Shown here piece after piece: positions 38,925 to 57,854 of a DNA stretch of 64,000 nt. Where the stretch lies: assembly GCA_964347035.1 (NCBI GenBank), contig CAYFXE010000003.1, forward strand, positions 17,570 to 81,569, written 5' to 3'. The stretch's first letter is position 1. Every line of letters starts with the position of its first letter. The position numbers and the translations under genes are program-made. The stretch comes from an uncultured Eubacteriales bacterium. GTDB taxonomy: Bacteria; Acidobacteriota; Aminicenantia; Aminicenantales; Aminicenantaceae. The notes under the pieces were generated by a model. The model saw nothing but the letters and a program-made list of their open reading frames with translations. It had not been told where the DNA came from and did not search any database.

Positions 38925-40193
38925 TCAGATGATTTTATCCAAAAACGGAGATAGGAACAAAACTCCTATCCCCATCGCCAGTTCAAAAAGAGCCGGGACC
39001 AGGCAGTAACGGAGCACACGGAAATAGTTCGATTCCCCCACGACTTGGGCGGCAAAGATGCCGGCCAGAGCTGTTGGCGGCATCAAGTCCCCGAGTCCGG
39101 CCACTGCCGAAAGGGCTGAGGAGGTGATGATGGCATTCTTCTCGATCAGGGTGAGAATGAAGGGAACTCCCAGGATGGAGGCTGAGCCAAAGGCAGAGAC
39201 GGCACCAAAAAGAGGCATGCTGGTTGCTATTCCGAGATACAGAAGGAAAGGAGGTAAGGAAAGGAAAGAGATGACGGTCCAGCCTCGACCTCCGGTGAGA
39301 GTCATGATCTGGATGAACATCCCTACTCCAGCCAGAATACAGAGAATCGGCATGGCATCCTTGATGGCCTCTTGAGTGATTTTAAAAAAATTAAAACGGC
39401 GGCCACAGATAATGCCGGCTAGGCTTCCTAAGAAAAAGATGGCAGGGATGCCTATGTCTGGCATGACCTTGACAAGAAGTCCTTGGGTGATCATCAAGAA
39501 GAGGACGAGGATCAACGGGAGATAGAGACGGAAACCGTACATTCGAAAGTAAGATTCGGGAACAATTGCTTTCATTTGTTCATAGCCGATGATCTGGATA
39601 TCTTTGTAACCCAGCCAGAGGGAAATAATTATCGCAAGAGGCACGACGATGATTAGAAGAGGGAAGGTCAGCCCCACGTAGGGCATATCTACTCCGCCTC
39701 CCATGATCATCACCAAGATGTTCACTGGAGGCGCAATCATACCCAAAATGCCTCCCATGGCGATCAAAGCAGCTGTTTTGACCTTAGAAAGGCCGAGCTT
39801 GATAAGCACTGGAGCCACCAGCGCTCCGGTGCTCAAGACAGCTGTTGTCGATGACCCGGTGATCATTCCAGGAAACATGACTAGGAACATTACTGTCAAC
39901 AACAGAGAAACTTTTCTTCTGTAAAAGGTCTTCAGAAGGAGAGAGGTGACCGTATCCAAGATGCCTGAGGCTTGGAGAACCTTCATGAAGATCATGGCCG
40001 TGACGATGATGAGGATAGTGTCAAAATACCCAAAACTTCCTTCGATGAGGTGTCGCAGAGCGATCCCCTGACCGCCGAGGAGAGAACCAGCCAGAGCCGA
40101 AAGAGCAAGAGAAACGCCGATAGGTAGCTTGAGGATCATGGCCAGAAGGGCAAAAATGGCCACCATCAGGAGAAAGACCAGGTATTCAGGCAC
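38925..40193 (-). CDS. DctM-like large permease (TRAP large subunit / ion-transporter superfamily)
   Basis: 422 aa with about 12 TM helices. The N-terminal pattern LKLPIGVSLALSALAGSLL...DTILIIVTAMIFMKVLQASGI resembles DctM. No DctQ or DctP gene is adjacent. Confidence 0.6.
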   Translation of the reverse strand: MPEYLVFLLMVAIFALLAMILKLPIGVSLALSALAGSLLGGQGIALRHLIEGSFGYFDTILIIVTAMIFMKVLQASGILDTVTSLLLKTFYRRKVSLLLTVMFLVMFPGMITGSSTTAVLSTGALVAPVLIKLGLSKVKTAALIAMGGILGMIAPPVNILVMIMGGGVDMPYVGLTFPLLIIVVPLAIIISLWLGYKDIQIIGYEQMKAIVPESYFRMYGFRLYLPLILVLFLMITQGLLVKVMPDIGIPAIFFLGSLAGIICGRRFNFFKITQEAIKDAMPILCILAGVGMFIQIMTLTGGRGWTVISFLSLPPFLLYLGIATSMPLFGAVSAFGSASILGVPFILTLIEKNAIITSSALSAVAGLGDLMPPTALAGIFAAQVVGESNYFRVLRYCLVPALFELAMGIGVLFLSPFLDKII

Positions 40194-40220
40194 TGCGACT
40201 GAACCTCTGATACGTGCTCA

Positions 40221-40811
40221 TCACCTGATCAATCCGGGTTTTTTTGATTGGCTGGATTGGAAAGCCTGCTGGAGTGGTTCTAGGGCATCGATGGTTTTTT
40301 CGACTTGTATCAAAGGAATGTTATTCTCGTCGCAGATACGGGTGAAGAGTCCGTCTTTATTTCCAGAGGCAAGGACGATAGCCATCTGAGCGTTGGGAAG
40401 AAAGCTCGTGATGAAATCATCAGTCAACTCGCCTCTTCTCGCTTCTCCTCCAAGATGGAGACAGAGGAGAGGGATGTCTTGCGTCCGAGCCTCCTTTATC
40501 AACGATCCGACTCTTTTCTTTTCTTCGTCAACATCAAGCCCGGCCGCACCCAGCCCCTTGAGACTGGCTCCGAGAACTAGGACGACCGTTTTTTTGTTGG
40601 CCAAATCTTCAGCCGTAGCTAACTTAGAAAGCGTGGCCTCGAGTCCAGCCCTTTTGACTAAGACAGAGGCTATTTGTACTTCAGCACTCTGGCCTGCCGA
40701 GGTGATCAAGATCGGTTGCTCGAAAGAGGGGAGTGCTTCTTCTGTTGGGGCCTCAGCCAATCCGGTGCCGACAAGAAGAAAGATAATCATTGTCATCAAG
40801 GTTTTTTTCAT
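40221..40811 (-). CDS. Secreted protein of unknown function (possible transporter accessory)
   Basis: Signal peptide MKKTLMTMIIFLLVGTGLAEA. The alternating alpha/beta-like pattern is not recognisably DctP or TAXI. Confidence 0.45.
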   Translation of the reverse strand: MKKTLMTMIIFLLVGTGLAEAPTEEALPSFEQPILITSAGQSAEVQIASVLVKRAGLEATLSKLATAEDLANKKTVVLVLGASLKGLGAAGLDVDEEKKRVGSLIKEARTQDIPLLCLHLGGEARRGELTDDFITSFLPNAQMAIVLASGNKDGLFTRICDENNIPLIQVEKTIDALEPLQQAFQSSQSKKPGLIR

Positions 40812-40860
40812 CGGTTCACCTATGAATATAATTTCTATTTCTTACAAAGCCATCCCGACT

Positions 40861-42669
40861 TTAATATCCAGCCCCATATCCATCTCTTCTTGAATCGGCT
40901 CCACCGAGGATGAGGTTTTTTTCCTTGATGATGAGCAAACCCTGAGCCCCGCCAAAATATTTATCGTAGGCCTTTCGTTTCACTACTTTGTGTCCGATAG
41001 CTTCAAGAGATCGGATGACAGAGGTAGAAATCCGGGATTCGACATACACGTCTCGAGCCTTTCCTTGGGAGGAGTAGGTATAGAAGCGGGGAGCTTCGAT
41101 GGCTTCATCCAGGGTCATACCAAACTCCACGATGTTCAGGATGATTTGGGTCAGCGAAGGGAAAATTCTCGTTCCTCCCGGAGATCCGAGCACAAGGAAA
41201 GGCTCTTGCTTCTTGAAGAGAATAAGGGGACCCATCGAACTCACCGGGCGTCGGCCGGGACGAGGGGCATTTATGGAGTTTGGATCGTTGGCAAAATCAT
41301 CCATGTGATTATTCAACAGAAATCCAGTCTGTTCAGGGACAATACCAGATCCAAAAAAATGATTGATGGACTGGGTGAGAGAAACAATGTTTCCTTGTCT
41401 ATCGATGACACAGAGGTGACTCGTGTTCTCTTTTTCATTTTCTCGGTCATCGAAGGAGCCTGGTGGGTAGGAGTTGAGGAGACGGTCTTGCTGGATTTTT
41501 GAGGCAATCTCAGAGGCATAGGGCTTGGAAATAAGGCCAGAAACCGGGATCTTAACAAATTCAGGATCTCCCAGGTACTGGGCTCGGTCAGCGAAAACGA
41601 AGCGAAGGGCTTCGCTGAAGTGATGGATGTAGGCAGGAGTGTTCGGTCCCCATTTCTCGAGAGGCCAGTTTTCAGCAATGTTCAGGAGCTGGATGATATG
41701 CAGACCGCCGGATCCAGGGGGAGAGAGGGTATAAAGTGTAAAATCTTTGTATTTTCCGACAAGGGGAGTCTGCTCTAGGGGCTTGTAGCGAGCTAGATCT
41801 TCCAAACTCATGATTCCGCCTTTGTCTCGGACAGCCTTGATAATTCTTTTGGCGATATCCCCTTTGTAGAACTCGTCGCTTCCTTTGAGGGCAAGATTCC
41901 TGAATGTCTGGGCCAAATCCGGGTTTTTGAAGGTATCGCCGGGTTCATACGGAAGGCCTTGATTCAGATAATGGCTGTCTTCTCCATCATTCAGCACCAA
42001 TTTTTCATACTCATCTTTGTTGATCGTACTGAAAGTTTGACTAATTGTATAACCCTTTTCAGCGATGGTTATCGCTTCCTCAGCAACGTCTCTCAGGGAT
42101 TGAGTCCCGTATTTTTTTAGAGCGTAAGTCCAGCCAGCTAGTGCTCCGGGTACAGCGACCGCCAGGCCGTGAGTTCTTTTCCAATCTCTTCTGAGCTTGC
42201 CCTCCGAGATAAACATTTCAGGGGAAGCTCGGGATGGGGCCTTTTCTCTGTAATTGATTACGGTCAATTTCTTGGATGAGGCGAGATAGATGACCATGAA
42301 GCCGCCGCCGCCGATGCCCGAGGCAAAGGGTTCAGCCGCGTTTAGAGCGAATGCTGTCGCCACAGCCGCGTCGACAGCATTCCCTCCTCCCTTGAGTATC
42401 TTCAATCCCGCCTTCGCGGCCAGATGATGAGCTGCTACGACCATTCCCGATTTTCCGACAAAGTTGTAGGGCTGATGACGATCAGCCGGGAGTTGGTCAG
42501 GGGCTGTACCCTTAGCCTGAAAACCAAGGGAAGACAACACAACGATGAGAGTCGAGAGGATCAACAGCGTGTCCGGCTCAGGGATGAAACGTCTAATCTT
42601 CAATCTCTGATTCCTCCTCCATAATTTTGGATATTTCCTCTTGAGAAGGAAGATCCTTGATGTTATCAA
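40861..42669 (-). CDS. ggt: Gamma-glutamyltransferase
   Basis: GGT family pattern, including the autoprocessing nucleophile region ENTSHLCVIDRQGN and GSPGGTRI. The start is uncertain: the ORF-track start overlaps scpB by 77 nt, whereas the TTG at 42603 would overlap by only 11 nt. Confidence 0.88.
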   Translation of the reverse strand: MITSRIFLLKRKYPKLWRRNQRLKIRRFIPEPDTLLILSTLIVVLSSLGFQAKGTAPDQLPADRHQPYNFVGKSGMVVAAHHLAAKAGLKILKGGGNAVDAAVATAFALNAAEPFASGIGGGGFMVIYLASSKKLTVINYREKAPSRASPEMFISEGKLRRDWKRTHGLAVAVPGALAGWTYALKKYGTQSLRDVAEEAITIAEKGYTISQTFSTINKDEYEKLVLNDGEDSHYLNQGLPYEPGDTFKNPDLAQTFRNLALKGSDEFYKGDIAKRIIKAVRDKGGIMSLEDLARYKPLEQTPLVGKYKDFTLYTLSPPGSGGLHIIQLLNIAENWPLEKWGPNTPAYIHHFSEALRFVFADRAQYLGDPEFVKIPVSGLISKPYASEIASKIQQDRLLNSYPPGSFDDRENEKENTSHLCVIDRQGNIVSLTQSINHFFGSGIVPEQTGFLLNNHMDDFANDPNSINAPRPGRRPVSSMGPLILFKKQEPFLVLGSPGGTRIFPSLTQIILNIVEFGMTLDEAIEAPRFYTYSSQGKARDVYVESRISTSVIRSLEAIGHKVVKRKAYDKYFGGAQGLLIIKEKNLILGGADSRRDGYGAGY

Positions 42670-45571: not shown

Positions 45572-45739
45572 GTTAGACCAGAGGTATTTATAACATAACA
45601 GGTAAGAAGCGTAAAGCCTAAAAAATGAATATTCCGCCTGATCTTTCTTCCTGATTCCGCAGATAAAAAATTCCATTTGGCGCTTTAGAATCGGGGGGTC
45701 TCACAATACGAACGGTTGGTTTTTCTTACAGATAGACTT

Positions 45740-45820
45740 GGGATTAGGCCTTATCCCAAGGTTTTGTACTTGGGTGAAGTTAAGGACACAGCGCTTCCAG
45801 GCGACAAGGCCTGACCCCAG
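45740..45820 (-). repeat. Inverted, diverged second copy of the 25236-25318 hairpin element
   Basis: The reverse complement of 45739-45823 matches 25232-25316 at 74/85 positions (manual count). One stem arm is degraded (GGGATTAGGCCTT versus GGGGTCAGGCCTT). An inner CCCAAG/CTTGGG stem is present. Confidence 0.6.
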
Positions 45821-45925: not shown

Positions 45926-47506
45926 TTAGCTGTTTAAGATTTTTTCGACTTCTTCCTTGTCCACTTCTGTAACCATCGGGATTCCGCTGATCGTGGCGGC
46001 ATCCTGAGTCAGGGCGGCAATGTCATCGCGCGTGATGTAGGACAGGTTGAATTTGCGGTTACCGGCCATGAGCTGTTTTAAACCCTGACTCAACCGTTTG
46101 AAATACCCATTCACACCGATAGCTCCGGTGGGGATATCCTTGAATCTTTCTCCAAACTGATGCTTTAAGTCGGTAGCGGTGACGAAGATTTCTTCCACCT
46201 TATTTCCGAATCTTTCCACATAAACAGGAATCTGATCTTCACTGATTCTCTTCCCGATGGTTTTGCCGACCATGGCGGCAGCCATCGGTCCTCTGGCCAT
46301 TCCGACGGCTTTAAAGTAAGGCGCTCCTAAGGCCAGAGCTTTATAGATCTGGTCTTCGAACGTGATACCTCCGGCAGCAGCGACGTCAGGGATGTATTCC
46401 CCTTTTTCATCGAGTTTGCGGAGGTACTTGTACAGGAGGGACCAGATTTCAACACTTGGAATGCCCCATTCATTCATCATCCGCCAAGGACTCATCCCAG
46501 TTCCGCCACCAGCACCGTCGACGGTCAGGAAGTCGAGTTTGGCTTTGGAGGCAAACTTAACAGCTCGGGCCAAATCGGCGGGTCTATAGGCTCCTGTCTT
46601 AAGAAAGATATATTTAGCGCCCGCTTTCCTAAGTTCCTCGACTCTTTGCATGAAGCTTTCCTCTTCGACCATCCCCAGGCGCGAGTGTCTTTCGAACTCT
46701 TTAAACGCCCCATGTTCAAAGGCTTTTATTATGTCTGGGTTCTCAGGATCCGGGAGAACAATATAGCCCTTTTTTTTCAGAGCTTGGGCCTTATCGAGTG
46801 TCTTGATCTTGACTTCTCCGCCGATATCTTTGGCCCCCTGTCCCCATTTCAGCTCAGCAACTTCAACACCGAGTTTATCGATTACGTACTCCTGCACACC
46901 CAACCTGGTGTCCTCGACATTGGCTTGGACCACGACGGCTCCGTAGCCATCCGTTTGCCACTCCTGGAAGAGTTTCACCCGGGTTTCCATTTCCGGGGAG
47001 CGGGCGATTCTTCCGTTTTTGATCTCGGATTCGTCATCCATGGCGCAGACGTTTTCTCCGATAGTGAGGAGTGATCCTGAGATAGCCGCTCCGATGGCCA
47101 ATCCGTCCCAGTTCTGTTTAGCCACGTTTGTCGATCCCATACCCGAAATGACAAACGGAACTTTGAGTTTGATTCCCTTATCGTGTCCGATGGCTGTCTC
47201 GATAGTCACTTTGGGAAAAGTCGCCTTATCGGGATCGGCCTCGACACCATGGGCTCCGACCGCTGTCCCCATTATGGTGAAGTGCGAAAGATCAACCGGA
47301 TATTCTTTTTCAGATGCAGCGGTGATGATCCCGAACGGCTGAGGATAAAGGACCTCTGCTCCCCTGTAGGCTGATTTTCCAATCTCGCACATCCCGATAC
47401 AACCATCAACACAGGTCACACACATTCCACTGAAAGGACTGATGGAACCTTCGGTTCTGTTTTTGGTTAGTGTTGCAGCACTCCTGTTGAGTTTTGTATA
47501 AGCCAT
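45926..47506 (-). CDS. Glutamate-synthase-related FMN-binding protein (GltB domain-2-like only)
   Basis: N-terminal Cys cluster CVTCVDGCIGMC, a TIM-barrel FMN region with DGAGGGTGMSP, and AAGGI. There is no amidotransferase or GXGXG domain in the protein. Confidence 0.8.
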   Translation of the reverse strand: MAYTKLNRSAATLTKNRTEGSISPFSGMCVTCVDGCIGMCEIGKSAYRGAEVLYPQPFGIITAASEKEYPVDLSHFTIMGTAVGAHGVEADPDKATFPKVTIETAIGHDKGIKLKVPFVISGMGSTNVAKQNWDGLAIGAAISGSLLTIGENVCAMDDESEIKNGRIARSPEMETRVKLFQEWQTDGYGAVVVQANVEDTRLGVQEYVIDKLGVEVAELKWGQGAKDIGGEVKIKTLDKAQALKKKGYIVLPDPENPDIIKAFEHGAFKEFERHSRLGMVEEESFMQRVEELRKAGAKYIFLKTGAYRPADLARAVKFASKAKLDFLTVDGAGGGTGMSPWRMMNEWGIPSVEIWSLLYKYLRKLDEKGEYIPDVAAAGGITFEDQIYKALALGAPYFKAVGMARGPMAAAMVGKTIGKRISEDQIPVYVERFGNKVEEIFVTATDLKHQFGERFKDIPTGAIGVNGYFKRLSQGLKQLMAGNRKFNLSYITRDDIAALTQDAATISGIPMVTEVDKEEVEKILNS

Positions 47507-47557
47507 TATGTTTACCTCCTAAAGTTCTCGTTGTATTGATTGCAGTGAGAAACTTGC

Positions 47558-48289
47558 TTAGCGAGCATTTTTTTCCTTTTTTTTCTTCTCACTGTCGGGT
47601 TCTTCTGGCGGTCTCACACATGTTCCACACCGCCCAGCGTCGTACATCCAGCACTGGAGCTCATCATGAACATCTACGCAGGTGGGGTCCATGTTCAGAC
47701 AGGCATTGCAGACAACGGTGTCTGCATCCGGACCTGGACATTTCAACTGGCAGGCCGGACAGATATATATGCACCCCCCGCATTGTCGGCAGACATTAGA
47801 TTTCATGTCGAAAGGTGTAGCGATTTTTCTCTGGAAACCCCGATTCTGGAAGCCGATAGCTTTGGCGTCCATCTGTTCGGCGCACATCCGAACGCAGAGA
47901 CCACACAGGACACACTCCTCGTTGCGCACTTCAAACCTGACCTGGTTGACACCAAATCGTGATGCCAGATCTTGGATGATTTTTGAATTCGGTGCGACCG
48001 AGAGCATGAGCTCGATCATCATCTTCCGCGTTTCGAGGACACGCTTCGTGTCTGTCCTGATGGCAAGCCCTTCCTCCGCTGGATAGGTACAGGAAGAAAC
48101 AAGTTTGGTTTTTGGGGCTTCTCCAATTTCAACGAGACAAAGGCGGCAGCCTCCGAAGGGAGTGAGCCCTTCGTTGTAGCAGAGAGTGGGGATTTCGAGT
48201 CCATAGAATTTAGCTGTTTCGAGGATGGTCCAGCCTTCCTCAGCTTTGACTTCTAATCCATTTAATATGATGTTGATCATTTTTTCCAT
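47558..48289 (-). CDS. Multi-cluster Fe-S protein resembling the NuoG/HydA N-terminus (2Fe-2S plus 2x 4Fe-4S) with an extra Cys-rich tail
   Basis: The 2Fe-2S pattern is IPTLCYNEGLTPFGGCRLCLVEI...SSC. The ferredoxin motifs are CVLCGLCVRMC and CRQCGGCIYICP. There are additional cysteines toward the C-terminus. Confidence 0.75.
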   Translation of the reverse strand: MEKMINIILNGLEVKAEEGWTILETAKFYGLEIPTLCYNEGLTPFGGCRLCLVEIGEAPKTKLVSSCTYPAEEGLAIRTDTKRVLETRKMMIELMLSVAPNSKIIQDLASRFGVNQVRFEVRNEECVLCGLCVRMCAEQMDAKAIGFQNRGFQRKIATPFDMKSNVCRQCGGCIYICPACQLKCPGPDADTVVCNACLNMDPTCVDVHDELQCWMYDAGRCGTCVRPPEEPDSEKKKKEKNAR

Positions 48290-51200
48290 CCTATTGCTTT
48301 TTTACCTTCCTCAGTCTCCAATTCACATCTCAGGCATCGCCTTGCTTCTTTTATAGCCATTTCTTTCGTTAATCCCAGTTCAACTTCCTTAAAGTTTTTC
48401 TGTCTTGCTTGTACTCTCAGCTTTGGCATCTTTGATCGTGTTGCCTTTTCTATTTCTTCTTCTGTGAGTTCTACAGGTTCGACATAGAGGGAGGGTCTAT
48501 TCAGCTTATATTCCTTATCCATACTTTTTCCTGAAATGTACTTATCGATGGATTCAGCCGCTTCTTTCCCCGCAGCCATTGCTTCCACGACGGTTTTAGG
48601 CCCTGTCACAACGTCTCCTCCAGCGAAAACTCCCTGTTGACTGGTCAAAAGTGACTCATCATCAGCCTCTATGGTGCCCCATTTTGAGATTTTTATCTGA
48701 CTCTTGTCGCCAAGAAACGAAATGTCAGGTCTTTCACCAATCGCTGGTATAAGTGTGTCTAATTCTATCTCAAATTCAGAGCCCTCAATAGGGATAGGCC
48801 TTCGTCTTCCGCTGGAATCAATATCGCCTAATTTCATTTGTAGACATTCCACCCCCACAACCTTTCCACGATGAGTTAAGACTTTTATGGGAGCAACCAA
48901 GAATTGAATATCTATTCCTTCTTCAAGAGCACTATCGATTTCTTCTTCAAAGGCGGGCATTTCTTTTCTCGTTCTTCTGTATAGGATTGTAACCTTTTTA
49001 CATTTTTTATCTCTTATCGAGACTCGAGCCGCATCAATTGCAGCGTTTCCTCCACCAATAATGCCTATTCTTTCGCCGATCTCCACATCCTTACCTAGGT
49101 TTACGGATTTAAGCAAGTCCATGGCCTGTATAACACCTTTTGCTTTTTCACCTGGAATATTAAGCTTCATTGGCTTATGAGCTCCTATGGCAAGGAAGAC
49201 AGCCTTATACCCTTTCTTGAAAAGATCATCGATAGAAAAATCTCGACCCAAAGCTCGGTTCGTTTCAACCGTGACTCCGGACTGGATAATGTTTTCGATG
49301 TCTGAATTTAATAATTTCTTGGGTAATCTGTGCTCTGGGATGCCGGTGGTGAGCATTCCTCCCAACACAGGCAAGGACTCGAAGATTGTCACAGCATATC
49401 CCTTTTGATTCAGGACGTAGCCGGCGGTGAGGCCAGCCGGTCCACCGCCAATTATTGCCACTTTTGTATTTTTGTGGGATCTTTCCTGATTGATATGCAA
49501 ATGATAGCCATTTTCAAGCGCCCAATCCATTACAAATCGTTTTAGGGAACGGATTGCTATGGATTCTCCAAATTCACCTGCTCGACATACGGTCTCACAA
49601 GGATGGTGACAGACACGGCCGCATACAGAAGGTAAAGGATTGTCCTTTAGAATGATATCCAGTGCCTCTTCAAATTTTTCTTGAGCGATATGGGCAATAT
49701 AAACTGAGGCCTCCTGGTCAATCGGACAGATGTATTGACAAGGGGAAGAAACAATTTCTTTACAAACAAGCGCGGAGCACTTCTTGCGCTTGATATGATC
49801 TTCATATTCTTCCTTAAAATATCTCAGTGTGGAGAGGACCGGATTGGCAGCTGTCTGTCCAAGACCGCACATGGAGGCATCTTTGACAGCCTCTGCTAAA
49901 GATTCGAGGATTTCGATATTCCCGTCTTTTCCGTTTCCCCTGGATATATCTCTGACGATTTCCCACATGCGTTGTGTTCCTTCTCGGCAGGAAAGGCATT
50001 TACCACAGGATTCATCGCGGAGAAAATTCAAAAAGTACTTGGCCACGTCCACCATGCACGTGTTTTCATCCATAACGATCATTCCGCCTGAACCCATGAT
50101 GGATCCAGCTTGGGTCAGACTCTCATAATCAATCGGCAAGTCTAATTTTTTTCTGGGGATGCATCCCCCTGAAGGGCCCCCTGTTTGGACGGCTTTGAAT
50201 TCTTTCCCGTCAGGGATTCCCCCCCCTATGTCAAAAATTATTTCTCTTAAAGTGAGACCCATCGGGACTTCTACCAAGCCTGTGTTATTGATTTTTCCGA
50301 CAAGAGAGAAGATTTTTGTTCCCTTGCTTCCGTTTGTGCCGATTTGTGAGAACCATTCCGGACCTTTTTGGATGATGATAGGAATGTTGGCCCATGTCTC
50401 TACATTGTTGATATTGGTGGGTTTTTTCCATAGTCCTTTAACGGCCGGAAAAGGAGGTCTCTGACTAGGTATTCCCACTTTTCCCTCTACAGAGGCAATC
50501 AAAGCCGTCTCTTCACCGCAGACAAAAGCTCCTGCCCCCTTTGCGATATGGATACTTAAGTCGAAGCCACTTCCTAGAATATTCTTTCCCAGGAAACCCA
50601 ATTGTTCAGCCTGTTCAATAGCAAGTGTAATATGCCGAAGAGCAAGAGGATATTCATCGCGGATGTAAATATAACCCTCCTCGGCTCCGATGGCGTAGGC
50701 GCCTATTATCATCCCTTCTAACACTCTGTGAGGATTTCCCTCCAGCAGGCTGCGGTCCATGTAGGCGCCGGGATCACCCTCATCAGCATTGCAAATGATA
50801 TACTTAGTGTCACCCTTGGCCTTTCTCGCCAAGTCCCATTTGCTTCCTGTTGGGAAACCTGCACCTCCCCGTCCTCTCAAACCAGATTGCTTAACACTCT
50901 CAATAATGCCTTCTGGATTGCCTTCCGAGATAGTACATGCTAGAGAACCGTAGCCTCCTACGGAGATATAATCAAAGACATCGGTAGGATCAATGAGAGC
51001 ATTGTCTCCAAGGATAAGACGTTTCTGTTTCTTATAAAACGTGATTTCTTTTTCATTAAGAGCCGTTGTCTCTGAGGCTGGATCGAGATAAAGAAGATGA
51101 TCGATGACTCTATTTTCTAGTATCGTTGATAAAATGATATCCTTGGCATCTTTTGGTTCGACTTTTTGGTAAAAGAAGTCTAGGGGTTGAATGATGATGT

Positions 51201-51441
51201 TGGGCTCAGCCTCACAGAACCCATGACAGCCAGTGACCTTAATTTGGGCCTTGTCCTCAAGATTTTCTTTCTTAATGGCTTTTTCTAAAGATTCAATAAC
51301 TTTCATCGAACCTCTAGCGCGTCCACAGGTTCCTGCTGAAACTATCAAAATCGGTCTTGTCTCAGATTTTTTCTTCTGAATTTCATCGGCGATGGTCTGC
51401 TCCAACTCTGTAACAGATTTAATTTTCTTTAGGCTCTTCAT
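48277..51441 (-). CDS. Fusion protein: thioredoxin-like 2Fe-2S domain + NuoF-like NADH/FMN module + GltD-like (glutamate synthase small-subunit type) FAD/NAD(P)H oxidoreductase
   Basis: NuoF motifs are GLRGRGGAGFPTGSKW, DEGDPGAYMDR, ESCGKCLSCREG and MCGLGQTA. The GltD part has CGRVCHHPCETVC, VAIIGGGPAGLTAGY, IGIIGGGNAAIDAAR and GVFAGGDVVTGP. Confidence 0.85.
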   Translation of the reverse strand: MKSLKKIKSVTELEQTIADEIQKKKSETRPILIVSAGTCGRARGSMKVIESLEKAIKKENLEDKAQIKVTGCHGFCEAEPNIIIQPLDFFYQKVEPKDAKDIILSTILENRVIDHLLYLDPASETTALNEKEITFYKKQKRLILGDNALIDPTDVFDYISVGGYGSLACTISEGNPEGIIESVKQSGLRGRGGAGFPTGSKWDLARKAKGDTKYIICNADEGDPGAYMDRSLLEGNPHRVLEGMIIGAYAIGAEEGYIYIRDEYPLALRHITLAIEQAEQLGFLGKNILGSGFDLSIHIAKGAGAFVCGEETALIASVEGKVGIPSQRPPFPAVKGLWKKPTNINNVETWANIPIIIQKGPEWFSQIGTNGSKGTKIFSLVGKINNTGLVEVPMGLTLREIIFDIGGGIPDGKEFKAVQTGGPSGGCIPRKKLDLPIDYESLTQAGSIMGSGGMIVMDENTCMVDVAKYFLNFLRDESCGKCLSCREGTQRMWEIVRDISRGNGKDGNIEILESLAEAVKDASMCGLGQTAANPVLSTLRYFKEEYEDHIKRKKCSALVCKEIVSSPCQYICPIDQEASVYIAHIAQEKFEEALDIILKDNPLPSVCGRVCHHPCETVCRAGEFGESIAIRSLKRFVMDWALENGYHLHINQERSHKNTKVAIIGGGPAGLTAGYVLNQKGYAVTIFESLPVLGGMLTTGIPEHRLPKKLLNSDIENIIQSGVTVETNRALGRDFSIDDLFKKGYKAVFLAIGAHKPMKLNIPGEKAKGVIQAMDLLKSVNLGKDVEIGERIGIIGGGNAAIDAARVSIRDKKCKKVTILYRRTRKEMPAFEEEIDSALEEGIDIQFLVAPIKVLTHRGKVVGVECLQMKLGDIDSSGRRRPIPIEGSEFEIELDTLIPAIGERPDISFLGDKSQIKISKWGTIEADDESLLTSQQGVFAGGDVVTGPKTVVEAMAAGKEAAESIDKYISGKSMDKEYKLNRPSLYVEPVELTEEEIEKATRSKMPKLRVQARQKNFKEVELGLTKEMAIKEARRCLRCELETEEGKKAIGWKK

Positions 51442-51913
51442 TTTTTTTCTCTTTTTTCATGTACTTTTTTATGATCGAATTAACGTCACGCATATTGGTC
51501 TGGGCGTGATAATCATCGTCAACCACGACAACAGGACCGATGGCACAGCAGCCCAGACATGCTACGGTTTCCAAGCTGAAATGGCCATCTTGTGTTGTCT
51601 CTCCAGGCTGGATGTTCAGTTTTCTTTCAAATTCTTCTAGTATCTTCAATCCGCCTCTGACGTGACAAGCGGTTCCCATGCAGACAGTGACGAGGTGCTC
51701 TCCTCTCGGCTCAAGACTGAAGGAGCGATAAAATGTGGCTACTCCTAAGATATCGATAAGCGGAATATTCAATGCTTCTGAGACAGTGATTAGACTTGGT
51801 TCCGGTAGATAATTAAACTCAGCTTGGATGTCTTGAAGAATAGCTATAAGGGCCTTTTTTTCCTTATTGTATTTTTCGATGAATTCTTTGACCTTTTGAG
51901 TTTCGACATTCAT
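51419..51913 (-). CDS. NuoE-like (24-kDa type) thioredoxin-fold 2Fe-2S protein
   Basis: AILQDIQAEFNYLP and VCMGTACHVRGG motifs. The ATG at 51913 has a GGAGG Shine-Dalgarno sequence. The ORF-track GTG at 52030 would extend translation into repeat copy C. Confidence 0.85.
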   Translation of the reverse strand: MNVETQKVKEFIEKYNKEKKALIAILQDIQAEFNYLPEPSLITVSEALNIPLIDILGVATFYRSFSLEPRGEHLVTVCMGTACHVRGGLKILEEFERKLNIQPGETTQDGHFSLETVACLGCCAIGPVVVVDDDYHAQTNMRDVNSIIKKYMKKEKKNEEPKEN

Positions 51914-51976
51914 AGGTTTTCCTCCAATTTGACGATCAGTTGATTTGCTCCACGTCTTGCCTTGGGGAACCGATCG

Positions 51977-52114
51977 TCGGGGGATCCAAAGGGGTATGCC
52001 CTCTTGGTCGCAGGGAGTGGGGTTATGCACTGCCCGAGAAGAGTAGGCAGGGAGGTCGGACGAATTTCGGGCGACCGTTGGAAGGGGGAACGCGAAGCGA
52101 TTCCAGCTCCAGGG
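51977..52114 (+). repeat. Copy C of the conserved GC-rich structured element (core CGACCGTTGGAAGGGGG at 52072-52088)
   Basis: It aligns to copy A (53/63) and copy B (43/55). P1 forms from CCAA (51986-51989) and TTGG (52004-52007). The 3' hairpin is GGAA-CGC-gaa-GCG-a-TTCC. TTGAAT follows at 52115-52120. Confidence 0.6.
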
Positions 52115-52565: not shown

Positions 52566-53009
52566 ATGGTAGATGATCTCGATAAAAAAATCATTCGCGT
52601 CCTTAACGAGAACGCCCGACGGAGTTTTCGGGAGATAGCCCGGGAGGTAGGGAGTTCTGTCACAGGGATTATCCACAGGATCAAAAAATTCGAAGATTCT
52701 GGAATCATCAAAGGATATATTCCTGTTGTTGATCCGGAATACTTTGGTTATGACCTAATCGCGATCATTGCTCTCCGGATCTCCCAGGGACGGCTTCTGG
52801 AAACCCAGGGGGAGATCGCAGCCGACCCTCGGGCCGTGGCTGTTTACGATATCACGGGAGAATGGGATTCGCTAATCATTGGTCGTTTCAAGGGGCGAGA
52901 GGACCTCAACAACTTTATAAAAAACGTGCTATCCAAAAAGTATGTCGACAGGACTGTGACTCATATCGTTCTGAATGTCGTCAAAGAAGAGAAACGGACA
53001 GTCGTCTGA
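52566..53009 (+). CDS. Lrp/AsnC-family transcriptional regulator
   Basis: N-terminal HTH (LDKKIIRVLNENARRSFREIAREVGSSVTGIIHRIKKFEDSGIIKGY) and a C-terminal RAM-like domain. Confidence 0.85.
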   Translation: MVDDLDKKIIRVLNENARRSFREIAREVGSSVTGIIHRIKKFEDSGIIKGYIPVVDPEYFGYDLIAIIALRISQGRLLETQGEIAADPRAVAVYDITGEWDSLIIGRFKGREDLNNFIKNVLSKKYVDRTVTHIVLNVVKEEKRTVV

Positions 53010-53741: not shown

Positions 53742-53757
53742 TGGCACAAATATTGCT
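53742..53757 (+). promoter_or_regulatory. Sigma54 (-24/-12) promoter TGGCAC-AAATA-TTGCT
   Basis: Exact TGGCAC-N5-TTGCW match upstream of the M1 peptidase gene. The predicted transcription start, near 53768, falls at the ORF-track TTG start, which favours a downstream ATG. Confidence 0.6.
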
Positions 53758-53838
53758 TATTCTCAGTTGATCATGGGATACTTTAGACGAGACTTATATT
53801 CTTTTGTGAGAGCCCGTCTATTTTGCTATAATACTTAT

Positions 53839-56451
53839 ATGAAAAATAGACTTATTATCTTTCTTCTCCTGTTACCCTTATCCATTTCCACCCGACCGCT
53901 TCTAGCAACGGAATCATCAAGCGTCGGTGATCTCGTTTCAGAGATTCAGGAGTCTTTGAGGACAAGCAATCTCGAAGAGTACTTGATGAATTTTTCCCCT
54001 GAAATCAGAGAAAAAGAAGGAGAGAAGATTAGATATTTATTCGATCGATTTAAAATCGAAAATGTAACTCTTTTCAGGACGAGAAAGAGCCCACTCAATC
54101 ATGATGAATCCACGATCTATGTGCAAGCTCTTTTTCAGAATCCGTATTCCGTAGTGATCGAGACCTGGAAGATGCTTCTTCAGGAGGAGAATGGCCGCTG
54201 GCAGATAAGAGAGAAGAGCATATCTGGAGAAGTCAAGGAGCTCTACAAGGTCATGATTCCTTCCGATAATATCGAACGCGTAAGACGGATCGAGATTGAT
54301 CATGTCGATATCAAACTGACTTTCGAGAATGCTCTGCTTCTTTATGACAATATTCCCGGATTTGAAACTGCTCTGATCGTCCTCGGCGATGGGTTTCTTC
54401 ACTTTGATCCATCGAATCGTGAAGAGAAGCACCAGCTTGAGATGATCTTTAACAAGAGAGTCCTCGAAGATAAGCTAAGCTATGCTTACTTAAGGTTTTC
54501 AGACTTTTTTTTCAGCACGAATATCAAGATTGTCCGATATTCTCGGCCTCAAAAACTGAATATTACCCAGGAGGAACGGAACAAAGCCAGTTCATTGTTT
54601 TCTAAACATTATCCTCGTTCCTTCACTATCGAGAACTCTCTCAACGGAGAACTCCTTTCTTTCTTGCCTAAAGGAAAGGAGACTGTCTTCGAATTCGAGG
54701 GAAGCCGGATAGGGACATACACATATATATATTCGCCTTTTGCTGAAGAAGAAGTGAATCTTTTCCAGTGGGAAGATGAAAAAATCATCAGCTTGTATTC
54801 TCCCCAGGATGATGAGAAGGAGAGGAAGATATTTTTCTCATTTGATCGGATGTTCGACATCACAAATTACGAAATCGATATTGCGTTTGAACCCAAAGAT
54901 GCATATCTATCGGGGAAAGCAAGAATTTACATAAGTTCAGGAGTTGGGTCTCTGGACGGGATTAAATTGAAATTCAACCCTGCTTTGGAGATTCTCCGCA
55001 TCAATGATAAAGAGAAACATGCGCTATTTTACACTCAAGATAGACTCAGGAAATACGTGTATATCTATTTTATTCAGCCGTTGACAAAGGGAGAAGAAAG
55101 CGCGATCGAGGTTTTCTACAGAGGAAAACTTATCCCTCCTAGGCAAACCACAGATGTTGTTGCCGGCCCTCAGGTTATCGATGAAACGTTCATCAATACA
55201 CCTATACGATATGAGAGTTATCTCTACACCCAATCTGCCTACTGGTATCCCTCTCCTCCTGGTGACGATTACTTTCAGGCCAGATTGAAGATCATCTGTC
55301 CACCAGAATATACTTGTGTTGCTAACGGAGAAAAAATAGAAGAATACGTACTCAACGGTATCGAGAGGGTTGAAGAAATAGAAAAAATGGGAAATTCTGT
55401 TTATGTTTTTGAGACGAAACGTCCGATCAAATACATTTCCTTTATCGTCGGAAAATTCAAAAAGGTTGAAGAAAAACACTCTGGCCTACCTTTAAGGTTT
55501 TTTAGATCATCCTTTCTTCGGATTCAAAAGAGAGATCTTCTCGAAGAGGCGAAGAAGATCATTCGGTTTTACGAGAGTAAATTTGGCTCTTATCCCTATG
55601 AAAAATTGACCATCGTCTACAGGATTTGGCCGAGGAGCGGAGGACACAGTCCAGCCTCATTCATTGTGCTCAATGAGTTGCCCGTTACTCGGAATACAAG
55701 ACGTTTCCTGAATAGACAAAGCCCCGTGGATTTTTCCCGTTGGAAGGAATATTTTCTCGCCCACGAAATTGCCCACCAGTGGTGGGGACAAGGGATGACC
55801 TGGAAGAGTTACCATGATCAGTGGTTGAGTGAGGGGCTGGCCCAATTTTCATCCATTCTGTATTTGAGAGAGAAACATGGGGATAAGGTGATCGCTCCGA
55901 TCCTGAAACAACTGTCCAGTTGGAGTGAGAGAAAATCGGACTGGGGAGCCATAACCATGGGCTCCCGGATAAGCTACTTTGATTATGAGGCCTTCCAATC
56001 GATCATCTACAATAAGACCTCTTTGGTCTTGAATTTATTGTGGGATCTTCTTGGTGATGAGCTTTTTTTTGAAGGATTGACGACATTTTTTTCCGAGCAT
56101 AAATACGATGTGGCCAGCACGAATGACTTCATCCGAACCTTTAATCAGATTTCTGGACAGGATCTGAGTCTGTTTTTCGAAGGTTGGCTCAAATCCCATA
56201 CTCTTCCTGAAGTGAAAGTCATGCATTCTTACAAAAAGGAAGGCGGACGTTATATCCTTGAACTAACCATCCGACAGATAAAGGATATTTTTGTCTTTCC
56301 TCTCTGGGTGGAGTGGTCTCATAACGGCGGGAAAATCACTGAGAAGATTATAATTGATGATAAGAATGAAAAATTTAACTTTGAATTAGGGGATAAGCCT
56401 AGAAAAATCAAAGTGAATCCGAGAAAAGCAGTCCCCGGAAGATTTCATTAG
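53839..56451 (+). CDS. M1-family zinc metallopeptidase (aminopeptidase N-like), exported
   Basis: HEIAHQWWG plus WLSEGLAQF gluzincin motifs. The signal peptide MKNRLIIFLLLLPLSIS starts at the ATG at 53839. The ORF-track start at 53767 is less likely. Confidence 0.85.
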   Translation: MKNRLIIFLLLLPLSISTRPLLATESSSVGDLVSEIQESLRTSNLEEYLMNFSPEIREKEGEKIRYLFDRFKIENVTLFRTRKSPLNHDESTIYVQALFQNPYSVVIETWKMLLQEENGRWQIREKSISGEVKELYKVMIPSDNIERVRRIEIDHVDIKLTFENALLLYDNIPGFETALIVLGDGFLHFDPSNREEKHQLEMIFNKRVLEDKLSYAYLRFSDFFFSTNIKIVRYSRPQKLNITQEERNKASSLFSKHYPRSFTIENSLNGELLSFLPKGKETVFEFEGSRIGTYTYIYSPFAEEEVNLFQWEDEKIISLYSPQDDEKERKIFFSFDRMFDITNYEIDIAFEPKDAYLSGKARIYISSGVGSLDGIKLKFNPALEILRINDKEKHALFYTQDRLRKYVYIYFIQPLTKGEESAIEVFYRGKLIPPRQTTDVVAGPQVIDETFINTPIRYESYLYTQSAYWYPSPPGDDYFQARLKIICPPEYTCVANGEKIEEYVLNGIERVEEIEKMGNSVYVFETKRPIKYISFIVGKFKKVEEKHSGLPLRFFRSSFLRIQKRDLLEEAKKIIRFYESKFGSYPYEKLTIVYRIWPRSGGHSPASFIVLNELPVTRNTRRFLNRQSPVDFSRWKEYFLAHEIAHQWWGQGMTWKSYHDQWLSEGLAQFSSILYLREKHGDKVIAPILKQLSSWSERKSDWGAITMGSRISYFDYEAFQSIIYNKTSLVLNLLWDLLGDELFFEGLTTFFSEHKYDVASTNDFIRTFNQISGQDLSLFFEGWLKSHTLPEVKVMHSYKKEGGRYILELTIRQIKDIFVFPLWVEWSHNGGKITEKIIIDDKNEKFNFELGDKPRKIKVNPRKAVPGRFH

Positions 56452-56462
56452 ACTTTCCTTCC

Positions 56463-57854
56463 TCAATCATAGATACTGTTTGTATTGATTTTCAATCTTT
56501 TGATCATCTCATTTAACGTCGTCGGCTTTATTCCCAATATACTGGCTGCCTTTTTTTGCACGCCCTTGGTCTCTTTCAGGGCTTCTATGATGGCTTTTTT
56601 CTGGTAGGATTGAATCTGTTCCTTCAGATTGATTTCATTGTTATAAGAGGTAATGGTTTTCCGTTCTTCTCTCTGGGTTCCCAGGAGGAATGGAGGAAGG
56701 GTATTCCGGGTGATGAGCTTTGACTTGGTAAGAACGACTGCTCTCTCGATGAGATTTTCTAACTCACGAATATTTCCTGGCCAATCGTATTCGTCGAAAA
56801 TTTCCATCACATCTTCAGAGACGCCGAGAATTTCCTTTTTATTTTCTTTGGCATAGATATCCAGAAAGTGTTTAACGAGGAGAGGAATGTCTTCCTTTCG
56901 ATCTCGAAGAGGCGGTAGTTCGATTTTGATAACGTTTAACCTGTAAAAAAGGTCATCTCTGAAATTCTTCTCCTCGATGAGCTTCTCTAGGTCTGCGTTG
57001 GTGGCGGCGATGACCCGGACATTCACTCGGGTCGTCTTGGTTCCGCCCAGTCTCATGAATTCTCGATCCTGCATGACCCGAAGCAATTTGGCCTGCGTTT
57101 CAAGGTTGAGGGAGGATATTTCATCGAAGAAAATAGTTCCTTTATCTGCTGCTTCGAAGAGGCCTTTTTTATTGCTTACGGCTCCGGTGAAGGCTCCTTT
57201 CACATGGCCAAAAAGATGACTCTCTAAAAGATCGGGGGGGAGTGAACCGCTGTTAACGACGATGAAAGGAAAGCTCGAACGGGCACTGTTTTGATGGATG
57301 GCTCTCGCTACCAGTTCCTTACCTGTGCCGCTTTCGCCCTGGATGAGGATCGTGCTCCGTGTGGGAGCTGAGGCCTTTATGGTTTCGAACACATTTTGCA
57401 TCAGTTTGCTATTGCCGATGATGTTTTCGAAACTGAATTTCTTCTTGAGCTCGTCCTTCAAACGAAGATTTTCTTCTTGGAGTTTCTTATGTCCCAGGGC
57501 TCTCTTGACGGTCAACAGCAACTCATCGTGCTTGAACGGTTTTTGAATGTAGTCGAAGGCTCCCATCTTCATGGCGGAAATCGCGGATTCCAAAGACGCA
57601 TAGGCCGTGATGATAATGATGACGGCAGAGGGATCTATCTTTTTCAGCTGCTTGAGGACCTCTAGTCCGTCAATTCCGGGCATCAGGAGGTCCAGAAGCA
57701 CAAGATCAAATTCTTGGCTAGAATGCTTGTCGAGGGCCTCCTCTCCGCTGGCTGACATTTCCACGTCAAAACCCTCGGCTGTGAGTAGGTCACCCAGGAC
57801 TTCATGGATTATGGGTTCATCGTCGATAATGTGTATCGATCCGTTTTCGTTCAT
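56463..57854 (-). CDS. NtrC-family sigma54-dependent response regulator
   Basis: Receiver domain (LVLLDLLMPGIDG), an AAA+ domain with GESGTGKELVARAIH and GAFTGA, and a C-terminal Fis-type HTH. Confidence 0.9.
   Translation of the reverse strand: MNENGSIHIIDDEPIIHEVLGDLLTAEGFDVEMSASGEEALDKHSSQEFDLVLLDLLMPGIDGLEVLKQLKKIDPSAVIIIITAYASLESAISAMKMGAFDYIQKPFKHDELLLTVKRALGHKKLQEENLRLKDELKKKFSFENIIGNSKLMQNVFETIKASAPTRSTILIQGESGTGKELVARAIHQNSARSSFPFIVVNSGSLPPDLLESHLFGHVKGAFTGAVSNKKGLFEAADKGTIFFDEISSLNLETQAKLLRVMQDREFMRLGGTKTTRVNVRVIAATNADLEKLIEEKNFRDDLFYRLNVIKIELPPLRDRKEDIPLLVKHFLDIYAKENKKEILGVSEDVMEIFDEYDWPGNIRELENLIERAVVLTKSKLITRNTLPPFLLGTQREERKTITSYNNEINLKEQIQSYQKKAIIEALKETKGVQKKAASILGIKPTTLNEMIKRLKINTNSIYD

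Follow-up and report, generated by a model that had tools for sequence, protein, structure and literature searches.

The subject of this analysis is a four-gene operon of an uncultured bacterium of the family Aminicenantaceae, located at positions 45926-51913 of a 64,000-nucleotide stretch of contig CAYFXE010000003.1 (hereafter, the window). We propose, with about even confidence, that the four products make up a single soluble flavoenzyme with several subunits and iron-sulfur clusters, of the Bfu (HydABC-type) kind, which would act as a glutaminase-less glutamate synthase, making glutamate from 2-oxoglutarate and free ammonia. The proposal builds on the domain and cofactor-motif anatomy of the four proteins, on Bfu signatures, on a domain swap among relatives, on a conserved four-gene order and on a link to glutamate genes in the gene context. 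In such a complex, the BfuC/BfuB core would bind NADH at flavin mononucleotide (FMN), and electrons from NADH and NADPH (ferredoxin in a sister form) would pass through a short WorA-like BfuA with one [2Fe-2S] cluster, two [4Fe-4S] clusters and an eight-cysteine tail. From BfuA they would travel to an N-terminal 4-Cys cluster and then to the FMN of a subunit resembling glutamate synthase (GltS), which would reduce 2-iminoglutarate (2-oxoglutarate plus free ammonia) to glutamate, and the two donors might be obligatorily coupled. The enzyme would serve to assimilate ammonium in bacteria and archaea that are strict anaerobes and mostly uncultured.

The four genes, all on the minus strand, are tightly packed, with overlaps of 23 nt and 13 nt and one 51-nt gap. 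The open reading frames (ORFs) span 45926-47506 (526 aa), 47558-48289 (243 aa), 48277-51441 (1054 aa) and 51419-52030. The real start of the last of these, the NuoE-like gene, is the ATG at 51913, seven bases 3' of a GGAGG, and its product has 164 aa. The parts of the operon and the evidence for each are as follows.

51419..51913, minus strand: BfuC, NuoE-like 24-kDa-type [2Fe-2S] subunit, 164 aa (Pfam and PDB matches)
49750..51441, minus strand: BfuB part of the 1054-aa fusion, aa 1-564 (PDB matches, signature residues)
48280..49749, minus strand: GltD/NfnL-type module of the fusion, aa 565-1054 (Pfam and PDB matches)
47558..48289, minus strand: short BfuA, an electron conduit resembling the N-terminus of NuoG/HydA, 243 aa (Pfam and PDB matches)
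45926..47506, minus strand: divergent glutamate-synthase FMN-domain protein, 526 aa, catalytic candidate (Pfam, hhalign, motifs, AlphaFold2)

Taken in order, the cofactor motifs are the NADH/FMN, B1 and B2 sites of BfuB; C1 of BfuC; the flavin adenine dinucleotide (FAD)/NADPH site and two [4Fe-4S] sites of the fused module; one [2Fe-2S] site, two [4Fe-4S] sites and eight further cysteines in BfuA; and the 4-Cys cluster and FMN of the GltS-like subunit. A preliminary description of the window, made from its letters alone, had reported four tightly packed minus-strand genes with the same overlaps and gap, and the ORF coordinates agree with it, the end at 51913 being the ATG. The Pfam scan that it suggested was run and returned every domain it had named, those of the NuoF and GltD modules included. 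Its 24-kDa-type 2Fe-2S protein was recovered, as was its 2Fe-2S plus 2x4Fe-4S protein with a Cys-rich tail and no catalytic domain, and the architecture gives three flavin sites and two pyridine-nucleotide sites where it had counted three or more flavins and two pyridine-nucleotide sites. Its Bfu-type assignment and its complete GltD-type module stood in part only, as detailed below.

The NuoE-like protein carries the Pfam domain 2Fe-2S_thioredx (1.4e-50), and its top PDB matches are BfuC chains (7t2r_C, 5.3e-45; 8a6t_C; 9mqx_C). Its Cys78, Cys83, Cys119 and Cys123 are kept in 47-48 of 48 aligned sequences, the lone exception being an X. In the 1054-aa fusion, Pfam detected a weak 2Fe-2S_thioredx domain (aa 31-103), Complex1_51K (2.7e-48), SLBB, NADH_4Fe-4S (6.8e-32), Fer4_20 (3.5e-26) and Pyr_redox_2 (2.8e-35). 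A PDB search aligned fusion residues 6/32-564 with BfuB of solved bifurcating enzymes at 1e-187 to 1e-211. The top match was 7t2r_B of a NiFe-Bfu enzyme (1.7e-211, about 60% identity), and HydB 8a6t_B, WorB 9mqx_B and NfnB/StnB were also found; Thermotoga maritima HydB (7p5h_B) matched more weakly at 1e-172, whereas complex I and other non-bifurcating NuoF chains reached only about 1e-111. Within the BfuB part, a thioredoxin-like domain at the N-terminus is accompanied by the NADH/FMN site, the [4Fe-4S] cluster B1 and a His/Cys3 site named B2, whose occupant is either [2Fe-2S] or Zn.

Schut et al. 2022 (PMC9304861) list in their supplementary figures the residues that part bifurcating from non-bifurcating homologues, and for BfuB this signature comprises EGDPGAF/YMDR, GAGAFVCGE, A202, M204 and F282. 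The fusion carries EGDPGAYMDRS and GAGAFVCGEETAL, and all the signature residues checked are present; IICNADEGDPGAYMDRS and KGAGAFVCGEETALI, the Bfu signature of the NADH/FMN site, are found in the window BfuB as well. A202, M204 and F282 are kept in all 61 aligned BfuB orthologues. The four B1 cysteines align in the window BfuB, as do H525, C438, C531 and C536 (A. mobile numbering) of the His/Cys3 site, and both sets are kept in 61/61 orthologues. Judged by these sequences, the NuoE/NuoF pair of the window is kin to the Bfu enzymes. The N-terminal thioredoxin-like domain (window 51133-51351, aa 31-103), whose [2Fe-2S] site is called B5 in later nomenclature, has S-x-G-T-C-G in place of C-x-G-T-G-C and so three of the four usual cysteines. 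Orthologues show either CxGTGC with four cysteines or S/PxGTCG with three, the window form; the four-cysteine form is kept in 21 of the 61 (22 at the second Cys position). In the S/PxGTCG form, the site may have a non-standard ligand, bind Zn or be without a cluster. In Thermococcus sibiricus NfnB, Zn occupies the B5 site and bifurcation is retained.

The 243-aa protein gave Pfam matches to Fer2_4 (5.1e-16) and to Fer4_7 (2.3e-05; 25.2 bits, slightly under the 27-bit cut-off). Its motifs comprise one [2Fe-2S] site, two CxxCxxCxxxC [4Fe-4S] sites and an eight-cysteine tail (aa 180-224, nt 47618-47752), with no catalytic domain. The top PDB match was WorA of WorABCSL (9mqx_A, 4.8e-36, aa 3-190), and the protein also resembles HydA and NfnA in their N-terminal parts. 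In the tungsten aldehyde oxidoreductase-Bfu complex, WorA serves as a short BfuA, without an A3 cluster or a catalytic domain (PMC12318220). All 20 cysteines of the window protein, including the eight of the tail, are kept in 53-57 of 57 orthologues.

The alignments of BfuB end near residue 540 of 597, leaving some 57 C-terminal residues of the solved chains unmatched, and Fer4_20 and the FAD/NADPH module follow directly. The window BfuB is without the C-terminal 2x[4Fe-4S] ferredoxin domain (B3/B4), and the GltD module sits exactly at that place. This domain is a defining Bfu feature and the proposed ferredoxin-reducing site (Schut 2022; PMC9304861). Because it is missing, we did not file the window enzyme as a full Bfu member, and canonical NAD/ferredoxin bifurcation cannot be assumed for the window copy, being plausible only for the sister variant. 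With B3/B4 absent and B5 one cysteine short, the Bfu bifurcation machinery may be incomplete in this copy. The Bfu-type assignment of the preliminary description is thus borne out by the PDB matches of BfuB and BfuC and by the signature residues, but not by the ferredoxin domain. That the window enzyme may nevertheless work in a Bfu-like manner is suggested by its conserved core and by the sister form.

Fusion residues 566-1040 are nearest to the NfnL-like part (residues 102-567) of NfnA/StnC, with matches to 9bov_A (1.3e-123), 9n5u_A and 8oh5_C. As in NfnA/StnC, the module shows a circular permutation when compared with E. coli GltD: it carries the 'RCLxC' cysteine pair at its C-terminal end (C1036, C1039), so that eight cysteines are at hand for two clusters. 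A YRR motif is common to the module and to E. coli GltD, an NADPH-dependent enzyme, and the predicted cofactors are two [4Fe-4S] clusters, FAD and an NADPH site. The NuoF module and the complete GltD-type module reported earlier are therefore both present in Pfam terms, but the latter is of the permuted NfnA/StnC type and not a canonical GltD.

A genome scan with one genome per species gave at least 595 relatives of the catalytic subunit, and the locus counts given here come from the best 80 of these (68-87% identical), each locus covering up to about 21 kb. The bacterial lineages among them are Aminicenantes, Zixibacteria, Planctomycetota/Phycisphaerae, Bacteroidota, Ignavibacteria, KSB1, Acetothermia, Aerophobetes, Stahlbacteria, Coatesbacteria, Holophagales and Dethiobacter, and the archaeal ones are Methanoperedens, Methanophagales and Thermoplasmata. 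In all, the 80 loci cover more than 15 bacterial and archaeal phyla, almost all of them uncultured anaerobes, and the catalytic subunit is about 70% identical between bacteria and archaea. Homologues at 84-94% identity place the organism within Candidatus Aminicenantes. All named near homologues come from metagenome-assembled genomes, and a homologue search for cultured hosts, seeded with a Firmicutes copy, returned only such genomes.

Gene order was counted in the 61 informative loci, those whose upstream flank covers at least 4.6 kb. The short BfuA and BfuB lie directly upstream of the GltS-like gene in 60 of them, with NuoE normally ahead, and these loci belong to more than 15 phyla, archaea among them. 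Two forms of BfuB were found. The BfuB::GltD fusion, as in the window, occurs at 38 loci. At 22 sister loci, a canonical BfuB of about 616 aa ends in the tail CxxCxxCxxxCP...CxxCxxCxxxC, that is, the B3/B4 ferredoxin domain, with its two CxxCxxCxxxC motifs at the position of the GltD module. Fusion and non-fusion forms sometimes occur in one phylum. The ferredoxin-binding domain and the NADPH/FAD module therefore replace each other naturally at one position of an enzyme that is otherwise orthologous, and since the one is swapped for the other, NADPH would stand where ferredoxin does in the sister form. In the 22 loci without a GltD module, the GltS-like protein is the sole candidate for a third-substrate site.

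These counts bear on whether the operon encodes one enzyme or two. NuoE, the NuoF-GltD fusion and the short NuoG-like protein could make up a transhydrogenase like Stn/NfnABC, the GltS-like gene being just co-transcribed; the fusion does have both NADH and NADPH sites, and its GltD module is of the NfnA/StnC type. We consider this the least probable of the readings weighed here. The fusion form is without the ferredoxin domain, the 22 non-fusion loci are without an NADPH site while the GltS-like gene is always there, the linkage holds in 60/61 loci across both domains of life, and the eight-cysteine tail of BfuA is kept along with the GltS-like gene.

Two variations were seen in the composition of the module. 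One Aminicenantes locus (L027, WVZL01000029.1, 2444-11581) has two tandem BfuC-BfuB sets before a single GltS-like gene, in the order NuoE and BfuB::GltD; NuoE, canonical BfuB (616 aa) and a 259-aa BfuA-like protein; then the short BfuA and the GltS-like gene. The other variation concerns NuoE, whose C-terminus is longer by about 130 aa in the versions from Planctomycetes, Bacteroidota and Zixibacteria; the added part contains several CxxC pairs and is zinc ribbon-like (e.g. L061 5237-6085, L047 1241-2089). This extension is a separate 135-aa ORF in L026 (5592-5999) and is absent from the window copy.

The 526-aa protein, the putative catalytic subunit, matched Pfam Glu_synthase (PF01645) at 7.5e-19 (68.6 bits against a cut-off of 20.4). 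The best stretch of this match is confined to the central part of the profile (positions 185-310 of 369), and a further stretch was listed with no coordinates. Near the N-terminus of the protein lies the motif C29-x2-C32-x3-C36-x3-C40 (nt 47387-47422). Across 76 sequences, these four cysteines and K226, R/K246, R273, H274 and R276 vary little or not at all. A family search in 1.8 billion representative proteins gave only 1089 matches, and the GltS-like family is therefore small and tight. A comparison by hhalign of the family profile with the FMN domain of E. coli GltB gave 73.8% probability (E = 2.9e-5). A motif-anchored alignment with E. coli GltB was colinear, with the following correspondences.

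GltB MSxGA: GMGST in the 526-aa protein
GltB SGEGGE: IGENV in the 526-aa protein
GltB QGAKPGEGG: QGAKDIGGE in the 526-aa protein
GltB AKLRY: LK(K/R)(R/K)GY in the 526-aa protein
GltB DGGTGASP: GGGTGMSP in the 526-aa protein
GltB DGGLKTG: AGGITFE in the 526-aa protein

The lysine of QGAK is kept, and R/K246 aligns with the Arg of GltB 'AKLRY'. The 3Fe-4S motif CX5CX4C that follows the FMN barrel in GltS is absent from the 526-aa protein, which has no Cys in the aligned region. An AlphaFold2 model built on a diverse homologue alignment reached a predicted local distance difference test score (pLDDT) of 85.8 and a predicted TM-score (pTM) of 0.87; an earlier model from a shallow alignment (84-94% identity) had a pLDDT of 62 and was unreliable. 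Foldseek searches with the better model returned FMN TIM barrels, foremost flavocytochrome b2, lactate oxidases and IDI-2. Among the 50 matches listed, GltS 1ofd_A had the top query-normalised TM-score (0.49) and, at 16%, the highest identity among chains of similar fold. An identity as an alpha-hydroxy-acid dehydrogenase, prompted by the top Foldseek matches, was rejected at the sequence level, hhalign giving 0.4% against E. coli LldD. The profile-profile comparison thus favours GltS over the alpha-hydroxy-acid dehydrogenases.

No glutamine amidotransferase (GATase) or GXGXG domain was found by Pfam in the operon or in the neighbouring window genes, and tblastn with four E. coli GltB domains (1-430 for GATase) gave no match, hence none to GATase or GXGXG, in the 64-kb window or in the 80 related loci, as the preliminary description had already noted for the operon. 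Two downstream ORFs of 261 aa and 325 aa were considered as the missing GXGXG and amidotransferase parts and ruled out; Pfam identified M50 peptidase and TrpRS there, followed by ScpA/ScpB. These results bear on the possibility that the operon encodes an ordinary glutamate synthase in split parts, with glutaminase and GXGXG proteins encoded elsewhere that join the GltS-like and GltD units, NuoE/NuoF being an extra NADH entry. Archaeal-type glutamate synthases are split into separate domain proteins, and a glutamine synthetase gene lies by the operon in about 10 Aminicenantes loci, both of which would fit. Such an arrangement is nonetheless very improbable in our judgement, given the lack of GATase/GXGXG similarity in the window and the 80 loci and the absence of the GltS 3Fe-4S motif. 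The same holds around GltS-like paralogues, 50-59% identical and with the same N-terminal Cys motif, that have no adjoining Bfu genes (L031 4129-5712; L037 5015-6604; L082-L087): no GATase or GXGXG genes were found in their neighbourhoods. One paralogue, in Dethiobacter, is accompanied by IclR regulators, one in Methanoperedens by riboflavin kinase and DHBP synthase, and the other paralogues stand alone.

The gene context was examined in the same loci, as the preliminary description had suggested; the survey gave, besides the four-gene order, glutamate-related neighbours. A glutamine synthetase (GS) or glutamate dehydrogenase (GDH) gene lies within 10 kb in about 24 of the 80 loci, against a chance expectation of about 2% by our own estimate, which assumes one to three such genes per genome. 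GDH (Pfam ELFV_dehydrog) was found within 10 kb at 15 loci, which belong to several phyla; in L026, L029, L030, L034, L048 and L054 it immediately follows the operon on the same strand. In most of the roughly 10 Aminicenantes loci mentioned above, glutamine synthetase is upstream of the operon at a distance of about 2 kb or less; in L014 and L043 it is farther away. At an Aerophobetes locus (L032, JAYEHT010000068.1, 840-17475), the module is flanked by two KorABG-like 2-oxoacid:ferredoxin oxidoreductase sets, an NfnS/NfnL-like pair and the beta and alpha subunits of succinyl-CoA synthetase (SCS), and the region looks like a gene island for glutamate <-> 2-oxoglutarate <-> succinyl-CoA <-> succinate. 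KorAB-like and NfnS/NfnL-like genes stand to one side of the module there, and the SCS genes to the other. With its adjoining GS, GDH, 2-oxoacid:ferredoxin oxidoreductase (KOR) and SCS genes, the gene context ties the enzyme to the metabolism of glutamate and ammonium.

Regulatory genes recur in these neighbourhoods, and their type varies with lineage. An AsnC/Lrp gene stands upstream of the operon in 12 Aminicenantes-type loci, on the opposite strand in 11, and likewise in the window. NtrC-type sigma-54 response regulators were found in 19 loci and GAF histidine kinases in 14, and both also in the window (56463-60667), while the Firmicutes loci have an IclR regulator.

The 2-oxoglutarate + NH4+/glutamate couple lies at roughly -0.1 to -0.15 V. 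This is well above NADH, and the reading consistent with the family is therefore confurcation onto a high-potential acceptor. Confurcation has been predicted for the Bfu members with high-potential acceptors, Nuo-Bfu and Rub-Bfu (Schut 2022; PMC9304861). The same architecture could also serve the opposite direction on the low-potential side, namely an energy-conserving bifurcating glutamate synthase in which NADH is the sole donor and exergonic reduction of 2-iminoglutarate drives the uphill reduction of NADP+ (fusion form) or ferredoxin (sister form):

2 NADH + NADP+ (or oxidised ferredoxin) + 2-oxoglutarate + NH4+ -> 2 NAD+ + NADPH (or reduced ferredoxin) + glutamate

The position of BfuB at which the GltD/NADPH module and the ferredoxin domain exchange within a phylum is the low-potential exit in solved Bfu enzymes, and electron transfer from NADH to 2-oxoglutarate/NH4+ yields about 35-40 kJ/mol (our own inference from textbook potentials), which would suffice to raise a second electron pair to NADPH or ferredoxin. 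However, all characterised Bfu enzymes have their third substrate as the mid-potential partner, and their FMN is proposed to be fed with single electrons by BfuA. The donor that they bifurcate is not NADH, so a bifurcating synthase would need Etf/Bcd-like chemistry at the Bfu site. We hold it to be distinctly unlikely.

Several points weigh against the proposed glutaminase-less synthase with two coupled donors. A high-potential acceptor needs no low-potential co-donor, and the window copy has neither B3/B4 nor the fourth cysteine of the N-terminal B5 site. The substrate is deduced solely from motif alignment and gene context. In searches against the PDB, phmmer gave no match for the 526-aa protein, and a 21-sequence family profile retrieved only de novo TIM barrels and, at E = 0.065, GltS. 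By sequence, the 'GltB FMN barrel' of the preliminary description is only a remote relative of GltS; the PF01645 match agrees with that description, and the CxxCxxxCxxxC motif that it named is invariant. Foldseek places alpha-hydroxy-acid oxidases and IDI-2 level with GltS, and since GltS is not separated from lactate oxidases, flavocytochrome b2 and IDI-2, the fold does not single out a substrate. Finally, there is neither a GS nor a GDH gene within the 64-kb window.

Some of these points would suit the same complex acting on another substrate at the FMN subunit, such as a different 2-oxo or imino acid, a 2-hydroxy acid or another C=N or C=C compound, in which case the glutamate neighbours would reflect a shared nitrogen/amino-acid regulon. 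The very remote kinship to GltS, the nature of the top Foldseek matches and the absence of GS and GDH from the window all allow for this; in addition, about 70% of the loci have no glutamate gene within 10 kb, and there are other, uncharacterised short GltS-like proteins. The preference of hhalign for the GltB FMN domain over LldD, the retention of the QGAK lysine and of the basic R/K246, and the adjoining GS/GDH genes across many phyla, with KOR and SCS at L032, argue the other way. We therefore regard another substrate as a minority prospect, and glutamate synthesis from free ammonia remains the reading that we prefer.

Four known systems resemble parts of the proposed glutamate synthase. 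WorABCSL (PDB 9mqx; PMC12318220), a 'Type 2' Bfu in the scheme of Schut 2022 (PMC9304861), has like the window a BfuC and BfuB core and a short BfuA (about 245 aa) serving a separate catalytic module; 9mqx_A is the top PDB match of the 243-aa protein, and 9mqx_B and 9mqx_C are among the best for the other two subunits. The catalytic module, however, is a tungstopterin WorSL nanowire in Wor and a GltS-like FMN/[4Fe-4S] protein in the window, the BfuA tail has eight conserved cysteines where WorA has a 4-Cys zinc finger, and the window BfuB has no B3/B4 ferredoxin domain. NfnABC/StnABC, the Bfu-type NADH-dependent ferredoxin:NADP+ transhydrogenase (9bov, 9n5u, 8oh5; PMC11829005, PMC12018979, PMC10482914), has the BfuBC core and the permuted GltD/NfnL-type module in common with the window. 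There the module is part of BfuA, together with a NuoG/Fdh-like domain, and feeds mid-potential electrons while BfuB keeps its ferredoxin domain; in the window it is on BfuB, replacing that domain, BfuA has merely 243 aa, and a fourth, GltS-like subunit is added.

HydBCD of the archaeal hybrid [FeFe]/[NiFe] hydrogenases (Cell 2024; PMC11216029), compared here by description, comprises a NuoF-like HydB with a 'GltA' (glutamate-synthase small-subunit) domain, a NuoE-like HydC and a short NuoG-like HydD. Its authors put the low-potential partner at the GltA domain of HydB (PMC11216029). That assembly is known from models only, and its partners are hydrogenase subunits instead of a GltS-like FMN protein. 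In GltBD (E. coli; A. brasilense PDB 2vdc), as in the window, a GltD-type NADPH/FAD/2x[4Fe-4S] unit feeds, or in the window would feed, a Glu_synthase FMN TIM barrel via an Fe-S cluster. Motifs for FMN binding and QGAK come in the same order in both, but the sequence similarity to GltB is marginal. The window lacks the glutamine amidotransferase, central and GXGXG domains; the 3Fe-4S CX5CX4C motif is replaced by an N-terminal 4-Cys motif that is absent from GltB; and the GltD module, in circularly permuted form, is joined to NuoF, which brings an extra NADH/FMN entry module.

The 2022 survey of Bfu enzymes (PMC9304861) distinguishes 12 types (Codh, FdhFeFe, F420, Fdh, FeFe, Mbh, Nfn, NiFe, Nuo, Por, Rub and Wor), none of them glutamate-related, and leaves 17-18 clades unassigned. 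No description of a module that couples a Bfu core to a GltS-like FMN subunit was found by full-text literature searches, and existing annotation of the module reads only 'NuoF' and 'FMN-binding glutamate synthase family protein'. The view of the preliminary description that the enzyme is uncharacterised is in line with this and with the metagenomic origin of all named near homologues. One entry of the survey's BfuB domain set, IPR017896, is presumably the 4Fe-4S ferredoxin-type domain, by our own reading of the entry number. The BfuB selection of the survey appears to need this entry, and if so, fusion forms like that of the window would have been excluded. The new element is thus the third-substrate module, a GltS-like FMN subunit that falls outside the 12 types (PMC9304861); the Bfu core, the WorA-type BfuA and the NfnA/StnC-type GltD module were already known.

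With at least 595 species-representative genomes, the four-gene module is very widespread. If it is a glutaminase-less glutamate synthase, reconstructions of nitrogen assimilation for Aminicenantes, Zixibacteria, Planctomycetes, Bacteroidota, anaerobic methanotrophic archaea (ANME) and Methanoperedens miss a central enzyme. The exchange of a ferredoxin domain for an NADPH/FAD module, with the rest of the enzyme constant, is a natural experiment on the low-potential branch of Bfu. Should the bifurcating alternative be true instead, nitrogen assimilation would be a source of low-potential reductant in energy-starved anaerobes, and the swap would show where low-potential electrons leave the Bfu core.

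Two features border the operon in the window.

52566..53009, plus strand: AsnC/Lrp-type regulator, transcribed divergently from the operon (Pfam HTH_24, HTH_AsnC-type, AsnC_trans_reg)
45737..45760, minus strand: perfect hairpin with an 8-bp stem in the 250-nt spacer 3' of the last gene, a possible operon end

The AsnC/Lrp-type gene is a probable local regulator of the operon. The hairpin is merely a candidate terminator because it has no clear U-tract, and the spacer that bears it parts the 526-aa gene from the M50 peptidase gene. By Pfam, the neighbours in the window are M50 peptidase, TrpRS, ScpA, ScpB, gamma-glutamyltranspeptidase, the AsnC/Lrp regulator, AdoMet decarboxylase and M1 peptidase. 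No sigma-54 promoter was found ahead of the operon in the window; upstream of nuoE in related loci, sigma-54 motifs occurred in 7 of 46 loci against 22 of 400 control segments, which is too weak for use.

Elsewhere in the window, a perfect sigma-54 -24/-12 consensus, TGGCACAAATATTGCT, lies at 53742-53757 on the plus strand, 10 nt ahead of the TTG start of the M1-family peptidase ORF (53767-56451). Past this ORF follow a sigma-54-dependent response regulator and a PDZ/7TM/GAF/PAS histidine kinase, at 56463-57854 and 57851-60667, both on the minus strand. Homologues of this regulator pair border the four-gene module in many other phyla. Downstream of ScpAB, the minus strand encodes a DctM-like transporter, DUF6305 and the gamma-glutamyltranspeptidase (38925-42669), and the window also has a succinylglutamate-desuccinylase/aspartoacylase-like gene (37631-38770) and peptidases of families M1, M29 and M50. 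This content of transporter, transpeptidase and peptidase genes fits a peptide- and amino-acid-scavenging lifestyle.

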